From a virus (taxonomy: Duplodnaviria; Heunggongvirae; Uroviricota; Caudoviricetes), in IMG/VR virus record IMGVR_UViG_2740892440_000003: a stretch of DNA of 61,023 nucleotides; one strand, written 5' to 3'. Shown here piece after piece: positions 15,351-21,346 of the stretch (position 1 is its first letter; the number at the start of each line of letters is the position of its first letter). Both the position numbers and the translations under genes were made by a program. Under the pieces are notes generated by a model that worked only from the letters and a program-made list of their open reading frames with translations, had not been told where the DNA came from and searched no databases.

Positions 15351-16913
15351 ATGAAAATGACAAGTATTCAACAACGTGCAGAGCTTCATCGTCAAATCTG
15401 GCAAATTGCTAACGATGTCAGGGGTTCGGTCGATGGATGGGATTTTAAGCAATACGTTCTGGGCGCACTTTTCTACCGTTTTATCAGCGAAAATTTTTCC
15501 AGTTATATTGAAGCCGGTGATGACAGTATCTGTTATGCGAAACTGGATGACAGCGTAATTACTGATGACATTAAAGACGATGCCATCAAAACTAAAGGCT
15601 ACTTCATCTACCCCAGTCAGCTTTTCTGCAACGTAGCTGCGAAAGCAAATACTAATGACAGACTGAATGCAGATTTAAACAGCATCTTCGTTGCTATCGA
15701 AAGTTCTGCTTACGGTTATCCTTCAGAAGCTGACATCAAAGGTTTGTTTGCTGATTTCGATACCACCAGTAACCGCCTGGGTAACACCGTTAAAGATAAA
15801 AATGCCCGCCTGGCTGCGGTTCTGAAAGGGGTTGAAGGGTTAAAACTTGGTGACTTCAACGAACATCAGATTGACCTGTTCGGTGATGCCTATGAGTTCC
15901 TGATTTCTAACTATGCGGCAAATGCCGGTAAGTCAGGCGGTGAGTTCTTTACACCGCAGCACGTCTCCAAGCTGATTGCACAACTGGCTATGCACGGGCA
16001 GACCCACGTTAACAAAATCTACGACCCGGCAGCGGGTTCCGGCTCACTGTTGTTGCAGGCGAAAAAACAGTTTGATAACCATATCATCGAAGAAGGCTTT
16101 TTCGGTCAGGAAATCAACCATACGACCTATAACCTGGCGCGTATGAACATGTTTTTGCACAACATCAACTACGACAAGTTTGATATCAAGCTGGGCAATA
16201 CGCTGACTGAACCGCACTTCAGAGATGAAAAACCGTTTGATGCCATCGTTTCTAACCCGCCGTATTCGGTGAAATGGATTGGCAGCGATGACCCGACGCT
16301 GATTAACGATGAGCGTTTTGCCCCGGCTGGCGTTCTGGCCCCCAAATCCAAAGCTGACTTCGCCTTTGTACTACATGCGCTGAACTATCTTTCGGCCAAA
16401 GGTCGCGCTGCGATTGTTTGCTTCCCGGGTATTTTTTACCGTGGCGGCGCAGAGCAGAAAATCCGTCAGTATCTGGTCGACAATAACTATGTCGAAACCG
16501 TGATTTCACTGGCACCGAACCTATTCTTTGGCACCACCATTGCCGTCAATATTCTGGTGTTGTCTAAACATAAAACGGATACCAAAGTTCAGTTTATTGA
16601 TGCCAGCGAATTGTTCAAAAAAGAGACTAACAACAATATCCTGACCGATGCCCATATCGAACAGATTATGCAGGTATTTGCCAGCAAGGAAGATGTTGCC
16701 CATCTGGCGAAATCTGTCACGTTCGAAGCCGTTGTCACTAATGGCTATAACCTGTCGGTGAGCAGCTATGTGGAAGCGAAAGATAACCGCGAAATTATCG
16801 ATATCGCTGAGTTGAATGCAGAGCTGAAAACCACGGTCAGCAAAATAGACCAGTTGCGCAAAGATATTGATGCGATTGTAGCTGAAATTGAAGGCTGCGA
16901 GGTACAGAAATGA
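15351..16913 (+). CDS. hsdM: type I restriction-modification methyltransferase subunit HsdM (type IC, EcoR124-like)
   Basis: 520 aa; N6-adenine methyltransferase motif NPPYSV; SAM-binding region [10 protein letters not shown]. Confidence 0.9.
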
Positions 16914-18109
16914 GCGAGTTGAGTTATCTGGAAAAATTGCTGGATGGGGTCGAGGTTGAGTGGAAAACACTAGGCAGTATAGCTGAACTAAAGCGAGGCA
17001 CATCAATTACAAAAAAAGATGTTATCGATGGAACCATCCCCGTAGTCGCTGGCGGACGCACACCTGCTTATTATCATAATACTAGTAATCGCGACGGACA
17101 AACAATTGTTATCGCAGGTTCTGGTGCGTATGCGGGATTCGTTAGTTGGTGGGAGGAACCAATTTTCGTATCGGATGCATTTACTGTAAAACCTCATAAT
17201 ATTTTGTTACCACGATATTGCTATCATTTTTTGATGAATATGCAACAACAACTCCATGATTTTAAGAGTGGTGGTGGTGTTCCGCATGTTTATCCACGAG
17301 ATGTATCACCTATTTTGATACCAATCCCCTGCCCGGATAATCCGGAAAAATCCCTTGCCATCCAGTCTGAAATCGTTCGGATTCTGGATAAGTTTACTGC
17401 ACTTACCGCTGAGCTTACCGCTGAGCTTACCGCTGAGCTTAACATGCGTAAAAAACAGTACAACTACTATCGCGACCGGTTATTTAGTTTTGGTGCCCAC
17501 GATGTTAAACGTCTGAAATTAGGAGAGCTATGTGTAATTGGAGACGGTTTGCATGGTACTCCAGAATATGACGCCAACGGTGATTATTTCTTTATCAATG
17601 GAAACAATTTAGGCTATCAAAAAATATCATTTAACGATAACACAAAAAAGGTTAATGATTCTATGTTTAAAAAACACGGAATTCATTTTGATCCAATAAA
17701 TACTGTTTTCCTGTCAATTAATGGCACAATTGGAAATGTTTCCTTTTACAATAATGAGAAGATCGTACTCGGTAAGTCTGTGGCCTATTTTAAAATTAAA
17801 TCACCTGAACTCCACACTAGATATCTTTTCTATTTCCTGCAAACCAATTACGCAAAACAGTATTTTGAAAATCAAAAAACAGGTTCAACTATTAAAAACT
17901 TAGGTTTAAAATCGTTGAGAGCATTTGAAATACCTATCCCATCATACGATGAACAACTTTATATCGTCGCCACGATGGATAAATTTTACAACCTGACAAA
18001 CTCCATCACCGAAGGCCTTCCGCGTGAAATCGAGTTGCGCCAGAAACAATACGAATACTACCGTGATTTACTTTTCAGTTTCCCGAAACCTGAAACTGTC
18101 AGTAATTAA
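16910..18109 (+). CDS. hsdS: type I R-M specificity subunit HsdS (type IC) with three TAEL repeats
   Basis: 399 aa; two target-recognition domains separated by a central conserved region containing [14 protein letters not shown]; start overlaps the hsdM stop (ATGA). Confidence 0.85.
17402..17437 (+). repeat. 3 x 12-bp tandem repeat (cttaccgctgag) encoding the TAEL repeats in hsdS
   Basis: Three perfect tandem copies, directly visible in the sequence. Confidence 0.9.
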
Positions 18110-18230
18110 TTGACCATTGCTACCGATCGGGCCACCTTAACACCCGGTCAGTATATAGACTATTTTTTACGCGCCGGAAGTCACTCTTAACGCCCTTCCG
18201 GCTCTTGCCAGGCGGCACAAAGGATGCGCT

Positions 18231-20858: not shown

Positions 20859-20872
20859 TTTTTGAGGTCGAT

Positions 20873-21346
20873 TTGCTGAAGTCTCAGGAAATAAACCTGG
20901 ATTATATCCTTGGACTGATTTTCGAACACAACAGACAAAATAAAGGCAAGGGCGAAATGATCGAAGAGGTCAAACGCTTAATTCGTTCAAGCCTGGGAAA
21001 CCGGGCGAAAGAGGGCCTGGTGGTCGATTTTATTCAGCAAACGAACCTGGATGATTTACCAGACAAAGCCAGTATCATTGAGGCATTCTTTACGTTTGCT
21101 CAACGCGAACAGCAACGTGAAGCAGAAGCATTGATAAAAGAAGAAAACCTCAATGAAGAAGCAGCAAAACGCTATATTCGCACGTCTTTAAAACGCGAAT
21201 ACGCCACCGAAAATGGCACAGAATTAAACGAAACATTACCAAAACTTAGTCCGTTGAATCCGCAATATAAAACGAAAAAACAGGCAGTTTTCCAGAAAAT
21301 CGTCTCGTTTATTGAGAAGTTTAAAGGCGTAGGCGGAAAAATATAG
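20873..21346 (+). CDS. hsdR: HsdR C-terminal domain fragment (downstream frame)
   Basis: The same frame reads ...[20 protein letters not shown]... upstream of the annotated start, continuous with HsdR if the A-run is 7 nt long. Confidence 0.6.

Follow-up and report, generated by a model that had tools for sequence, protein, structure and literature searches.

The window analysed here, a stretch of 61,023 nucleotides of viral DNA (IMG/VR record IMGVR_UViG_2740892440_000003), is a P1-like (Punavirus) phage-plasmid that carries an hsdM-hsdS-hsdR operon. We read this region as a standard restriction-modification (R-M) cassette of the EcoR124 family (type IC), inserted in a known exchangeable locus of P1-like phage-plasmids that lies between phd/doc and pap/pmgS. 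This reading covers the known cassette, a derived hsdS allele with three TAEL repeats and an hsdR frameshift that is most likely an error, and taken as a whole it is reasonably probable. The cassette type, its place in P1-like elements and the rule by which the TAEL number determines the spacer of the recognition site have all been established already, and the significance is mostly bookkeeping. The novelty is limited to a specificity allele without earlier record, which combines this pair of target recognition domains (TRDs) with three TAEL units.

The hsd operon encodes a type IC system

The hsdM gene (15351-16913, plus strand) encodes an apparently intact protein of 520 aa with the Pfam domains HsdM_N and N6_Mtase, which aligned with the HsdM chain of EcoR124 (7bst_D) over residues 1-520 (1155 bits). 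It overlaps by 4 nt (16910-16913) with hsdS (16910-18109, plus strand; 399 aa), which was identified by alignment to 7bst_A and by two Pfam Methylase_S domains. After a gap of 121 nt follows a separate hsdR gene; this layout is shared by the relatives and is the gene order of type IC systems. Historically, the family is defined by complementation of subunits or cross-reaction of antibodies among its members. HsdM and HsdR are close in sequence to the prototypes of the family, and HsdS combines conserved regions with a pair of variable TRDs and a tandem repeat of four residues. The alignments to the EcoR124 subunits and the Pfam matches therefore confirm the EcoR124-like type IC hsdM-hsdS-hsdR island that had been proposed in the initial annotation, made from the sequence alone.

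At its N-terminus, in its centre and at its C-terminus, HsdS has the conserved regions of type IC proteins in common with EcoR124 HsdS, as seen in the alignment to 7bst_A. A four-residue repeat of the TAEL or LEAT type in the central region is a described feature of type IC proteins (PMC3874165, PMC10030836). Both TRDs are essentially unalignable with those of EcoR124 and, therefore, the half-sites should not be GAA and RTCG. In the literature searched no recognition motif was tied to these TRDs, and the only solved type IC HsdS has unrelated TRDs. An exact look-up of the 399-aa HsdS in a collection of ~15 billion proteins gave no match. In the expected mechanism, an HsdM2-HsdS1 complex would methylate (m6A) a bipartite, asymmetric target whose half-sites are read by the two TRDs of HsdS, and how long the spacer between them is would be set by how long HsdS makes its central coiled-coil helix.

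A third TAEL unit in HsdS

The central coiled-coil helix is encoded in part by a tandem array of CTTACCGCTGAG (17402-17441, plus strand; 3.3 copies), in which Tandem Repeats Finder (TRF) detected perfect 12-bp units encoding (TAEL)3. TRF and the translation agree in this respect with the three repeats of 3 x 12 bp noted before. The nearest relative is the plasmid pYZ_2_2_2 (NZ_JBVNBM010000003.1), which has the same backbone locus and the same TRDs. In an alignment over positions 15200-21500 the two differ only by 14 clustered single-nucleotide polymorphisms (SNPs) in hsdM, one 12-bp TAEL unit and 1 nt: pYZ_2_2_2 has two TAEL units, one 12-bp unit less than the window, and an intact hsdR for 1038 aa.

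The two-repeat HsdS with the TRDs of the window (WP_096099418.1, 395 aa; labelled P0001) is present on 58 contigs, and, apart from that of the window, all HsdS proteins with these TRDs (P0001 and P0017-P0021) have two repeats. A second occurrence of a three-repeat HsdS with these TRDs was found neither by exact look-up nor among the relatives with the same TRDs. Since two repeats are the rule in all of these relatives and a three-repeat form with these TRDs is seen nowhere else, the allele of the window appears to be new and derived, by a 12-bp duplication, from the widespread two-repeat allele. The third unit would arise by tandem duplication, via slippage or unequal crossing-over. We consider the three-repeat allele very likely to be real, because an exact, in-register gain of 12 bp does not fit the error profile of the assembly described below. 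That the third unit is an artefact of assembly and the element in fact carries the common two-repeat allele is highly improbable; the absence of the three-repeat form with these TRDs elsewhere and the other errors of the assembly speak for it, but all other suspect differences are 1-nt deletions, and three TAEL repeats are common with other TRDs.

The repeat number was said in the initial annotation to set the spacer length, and this is indeed documented for EcoR124I/II as well as for EcoR124-EcoDXXI hybrids, in which two repeats correspond to an N6 and three to an N7 spacer (PMC3874165). EcoDXXI and EcoPrrI are three-repeat enzymes, too (PMC3874165). By analogy, the enzyme of the window should recognise the same half-sites as the two-repeat allele, with a spacer that is 1 bp longer. 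The window and pYZ_2_2_2 thus constitute a near-isogenic natural pair, with the same TRDs and three versus two TAEL units, that is suited to a test of the spacer rule on new half-sites.

The proposed variability of the tract also holds: population data showing no variation had been named as a refutation, and copy number was found to vary, with two repeats in the plasmid with the same TRDs and 1, 3, 5 or 6 at other E. coli loci. Across the type IC HsdS proteins of E. coli it ranges from 1 to 6 and it differs among otherwise near-identical alleles, such as those of the window (three) and pYZ_2_2_2 (two), whose TRDs are identical. One- and two-repeat alleles with the same TRDs form further pairs (P0026 with P0023 and P0060 with P0050, from a one-repeat set of P0026 and P0060-65 and a two-repeat set of P0023 and P0050/52). 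Three repeats with other TRDs occur on the chromosome NZ_CP030939, which shares TRD2 with the window, and in phage vB_EcoM-673R5; five were found in NZ_CP075462 and six in NZ_CM129869. Among the matches listed, ten more E. coli chromosomes (H147-H156) give the same two-piece match of 174 nt as NZ_CP075462 and are candidates for five repeats. The identity bands obtained with the 156-nt TAEL probe include partial and two-piece alignments and are used only qualitatively; the examples named were verified. Natural E. coli alleles with 1, 5 and 6 repeats lie outside the range of 2-3 given in reviews. With just three 12-bp units, the rate of repeat switching is expected to be low.

The hsdR frameshift is caused by a missing C

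The 5' frame of hsdR (18231-20858, plus strand) ends after 875 codons, as initially described and as given in the list of open reading frames (ORFs); it encodes 870 native residues followed by LTGTM and a stop. According to Pfam, the nuclease, two RecA-like motor domains and the helical domain are kept in this frame. Residues 1-870 are 100% identical to HsdR of pYZ_2_2_2 and colinear with EcoR124I HsdR (2w00_A, 1038 aa; 1914 bits), and the agreement runs past the two Lys codons of a run of six A. The remainder of the protein is encoded in the -1 frame (20840-21346, plus strand), which comprises residues 871-1038, i.e. the C-terminal domain, and the stop. Here, 166 of the 168 residues encoded by 20840-21343 are identical to residues 871-1038 of 2w00_A (348 bits), and the same segment matches the fusion of GFP with the C-terminal domain in 5j3n. 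The Pfam domain EcoR124_C (PF12008) is consequently divided between both frames at position ~99 of 260, the 3' part covering profile positions 100-260. As assembled, the gene does not encode an HsdR of ~1038 aa with EcoR124_C on one polypeptide. The -1 frame is open from 20822 and contains an ORF of 157 aa (20873-21346), whose first in-frame start is a TTG at 20873 with a GAGG before it at 20864-20867.

The frameshift had been assigned to a run of six A at 20824-20829. This run, which makes up the two Lys codons, lies at 20823-20828 (plus strand); it is wild-type and identical in the intact hsdR of pYZ_2_2_2. Because the intact gene has the same run, the cause of the frameshift is a 1-nt deletion 10 nt downstream of it, at 20838/20839 (plus strand), where the CC pair within AACCACT has lost a C: pYZ_2_2_2 reads TCAACCACTGAC and the window TCAACACTGAC. 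A lesion in the A-run was rejected on these grounds and because the protein is native through residue 870. The claim that one more A restores the full-length frame is correct in so far as the frame would reopen; the native residues would not be restored, since REIN would replace EKST (native EKKEKSTTDW), which is not the ancestral state. A search for a seventh A in accurate reads, as suggested previously, is aimed at the wrong bases, the suspect base being the C at 20838/20839.

The missing C is likely an error of the sequence

From comparisons with related sequences, the missing C is likely to be a deletion-type sequencing or assembly error, and the system would then be a complete R+M+ enzyme. 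Exact look-up of the 875-aa protein in the collection of ~15 billion proteins and in the gene-position index gave no match, and the intact HsdR was found on 48 contigs. A 60-nt probe centred on the deletion gave matches in 896 E. coli and 491 plasmid records, none of them with at least 99% identity; the top matches listed span 61 nt. The deletion was thus seen in no other record.

Furthermore, the window contains ~10 other unique 1-nt deletions, mostly in homopolymers of 2-7 nt, and no unique 1-nt insertion was found in the alignment with its relatives. Uniqueness was judged against three independent relatives for the deletions at 29533 (CC), 32221 and 32242 (T-runs), 33360 (GG), 34516 (CCC), 36136 and 39125 (T-run), and against pYZ_2_2_2 alone for those at 4904 and 6481. 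These deletions break a 242-aa gene of the P1 backbone, the ban/dnaB helicase gene (twice) and the dmt methyltransferase gene. A gene for 146 aa is frameshifted near 598-635 in comparison with pYZ_2_2_2, the sole relative that covers it. In a four-way alignment of 6.4 kb, 5 indels and 50 substitutions are unique to the window, compared with 0 and 84 in the three relatives together (Fisher p=0.009); unique indels are lacking in each relative, although the numbers of unique substitutions are comparable. The substitutions of the window in the broken genes are mostly synonymous (35 synonymous and 19 non-synonymous, no nonsense), which indicates purifying selection on the very genes that the indels would inactivate. 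For this reason, a genuine decay of the element is disfavoured. A shared motif around the unique deletions, such as a methylation site that causes nanopore errors, was not apparent. Together, the unique 1-nt deletions form the pattern expected from read or assembly errors with a bias towards deletions. The truncation of hsdR, which is unique to this sequence and accompanied by other unique deletions in conserved backbone genes, is accordingly doubtful, and with ~10 probable deletion errors in the assembly any pseudogene call in the window is suspect and should be treated with caution.

Several observations weigh against this reading of the cassette. No broken genes were found at 42-58 kb of the window, so the density of deletions is uneven, and the lost C sits in a run of 2 nt, not in a long homopolymer. 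Inactivated R-M genes are common in nature, hsdM knockouts being an example. A misassembly of the 12-bp copy number is formally conceivable, and the spacer shift of 1 bp is derived by analogy only, for the two- and three-repeat alleles with these TRDs alike.

A similar case of broken hsd genes is found in phage vB_EcoM-673R5 (ON470615.2), which carries the same cassette type at 3157-9108, with three TAEL repeats and different TRDs. There, the annotation splits hsdM into two pieces and hsdR into three, and the alignment to hsdR of the window has 6 gap openings. Fragmented hsd genes in records of P1-like elements may often reflect sequence quality.

Consequences of a genuine deletion

If the deletion of the C were real, HsdR would lack residues 871-1038 and could not assemble on M2S1, leaving a methylation-only (r- m+) system with a new three-repeat specificity. 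We regard this alternative as possible but rather unlikely. It takes the ORF structure as read, with hsdM and hsdS apparently intact, and the missing part is a C-terminal domain that folds on its own (5j3n). Since the M2S1 complex of type IC systems acts as a methyltransferase by itself, the phenotype of a real truncation would be r- m+. A C-terminal deletion mutant of HsdR reportedly lost restriction in vivo. The C-terminal domain is the part of HsdR that has been proposed to contact the methyltransferase (PMC5248579), and a role in assembly with HsdM is also indicated by the title of a 2018 paper by Grinkevich et al. The earlier statement that a genuine truncation would yield an element that modifies but does not restrict is reasonable as a conditional, since residues 871-1038 make up this domain with its presumed part in complex assembly. 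Type IC genes of E. coli also frequently carry loss-of-function alleles. Against a methylation-only system stands that the deletion occurs in no other record or protein collection and that it belongs to the set unique to the window which breaks ban twice, dmt and the 242-aa gene, in which the substitutions look constrained.

Alternatively, a real deletion might be partly compensated, either by -1 ribosomal or transcriptional slippage within the 37-nt overlap of the frames (20822-20858), in which the A6 run lies, or by re-initiation at the TTG at 20873, which would give a C-terminal domain acting in trans. The -1 frame is indeed open from 20822 to the stop of the 0 frame, the GAGG 5 nt upstream of the TTG (20864-20875) resembles a Shine-Dalgarno motif and the domain at the C-terminus folds alone, from about residue 881 (5j3n). 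But the intact gene has the A6 run and the GAGG-TTG as well, so that neither is an adaptation to the frameshift. Moreover, the A-run follows a G in AAA-AAA register, and both the slippery and the initiation context are poor: an efficient slippage heptamer is A-AAA-AAG, and a run of six A is too short for efficient transcriptional slippage. A functional split HsdR is hypothetical, and there is only a very slight chance that restriction is rescued in this way.

A very recent natural switch from two to three TAEL units together with a genuine knockout of hsdR on a P1-like phage-plasmid is quite improbable. If true, selection would have favoured or tolerated the loss of restriction, since the new enzyme would otherwise attack the host at sites with the new spacing, which are still unmethylated, and the element would be a "specificity explorer" that only methylates and modifies phage progeny in advance.

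No support for a coupling of repeat number to loss of hsdM or hsdR

A coupling of this kind, in which a change in TAEL copy number goes along with a lost hsdM or hsdR and self-restriction is thereby escaped, was considered for the E. coli loci and rejected. At one-repeat loci hsdM is knocked out and hsdR intact, the lesions being a frameshift at codon 168, W309* and Q90*; at the five- and six-repeat loci hsdM is N-terminally truncated. However, the hsdM lesions of the one-repeat loci also occur at two-repeat loci that share their TRDs, and the knockouts thus predate the repeat change or are independent of it. The pattern fits a drift of repeats in already dead systems.

Many chromosomal type IC loci (L011-L018 and L022-L037), located beside mcrBC or AbiE genes, have a knocked-out hsdM and an hsdR for the full 1038 aa. 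Their lesions, seen with one and with two TAEL repeats, are the frameshift at codon 168, W309* (TGG>TGA) and Q90* (CAG>TAG).

The cassette occupies an exchangeable locus of the P1 backbone

The boundaries of the cassette were determined by blastn against P1: homology to P1 stops at 15250 and picks up again at 21422, leaving a type IC hsd cassette of 6171 bp (15251-21421, plus strand) that stands in place of humD, lxr, hot, upfO/N/M, pmgV, pmgU and pmgT of P1. Its GC content is 43.4%, compared with 48-50% in the flanking P1 backbone, which would fit a module of foreign origin that is swapped in one piece. The junctions coincide with features (misc_features) of the P1 reference that record identity to sequences flanking the hsd loci of EcoDXXI and R124/3: on the phd/doc side the identity is 98% to the sequence upstream of the EcoDXXI locus, and on the pmgT/pap side 96-98% to the sequence downstream of both loci. 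The cassette is common, with at least 80% of the region covered in 611 PLSDB plasmids and 1,178 E. coli records.

On the left, the addiction module of doc (14573-14953) and phd (14953-15180) lies on the minus strand at 14573-15180, as concluded from the ORF list and the annotation of the relatives and of P1. The right flank (21611-23453, minus strand) was assigned by Pfam, the P1 annotation and blastn and comprises a pap homologue (21611-22117; a phosphatase of the HAD/PNKP type) and pmgS (22191-23453). Of the initial placement between phd-doc and ppp, the first part is accurate, with phd/doc directly upstream; on the other side, the pap homologue and pmgS adjoin the cassette, and ppp follows only ~3 kb beyond them.

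The 14 SNPs that distinguish hsdM from its counterpart in pYZ_2_2_2 lie within 280 bp (16361-16640, plus strand). This patch is probably a recombination or gene-conversion tract, judging from the clustering; no donor was found among the six other hsdM alleles examined.

Two further differences concern the backbone. At 6635-6642 the window has one extra 8-bp unit, TGATCAAG, compared with pYZ_2_2_2, where a few TGATCAA(A/G) units, which contain GATC, follow each other in tandem; this short array is intergenic and near the cre/c1 side of the backbone. The dmt gene (Dam-family) is present at 37594-40877 in a long form, as in two relatives (L005 and L006; 1095 aa there), whereas pYZ_2_2_2 has a form of 754 aa (42020-44284) that is ~1 kb shorter.

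Comparison with known systems

The closest known systems include EcoR124I and EcoR124II, the type IC prototype encoded on plasmids R124 and R124/3. HsdM aligned with its EcoR124 counterpart over 520 of 520 residues and HsdR over residues 1-870 and 871-1038, with ~98-99% identity, and the gene order, the conserved regions of HsdS and the 12-bp TAEL repeat are common to both. The pair of EcoR124I (N6) and EcoR124II (N7) is mirrored by the two and three repeats of pYZ_2_2_2 and the window. Unlike in EcoR124, whose half-sites are GAA and RTCG, both TRDs are unrelated, hsdR carries a 1-nt deletion as assembled, and the replicon is a P1-like phage-plasmid and not a conjugative plasmid.

In EcoDXXI (type IC; TCA N7 RTTC) the TAEL repeats likewise number three and, according to the P1 annotation, the hsd locus has the same P1 sequences on either side; the TRDs are presumably different. 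A natural precedent for the effect of the repeat is NgoAV, a type IC system of Neisseria gonorrhoeae in which variation of a LEAT repeat alters the spacer of the methylated motif in steps of 1 bp for each repeat, as seen in single-molecule real-time (SMRT) methylomes (PMC6789123). As in the E. coli loci described here, a four-residue repeat in the central helix of HsdS varies from strain to strain, but the repeat is LEAT, host and TRDs are others, and NgoAV in addition uses a poly-G frameshift within hsdS.

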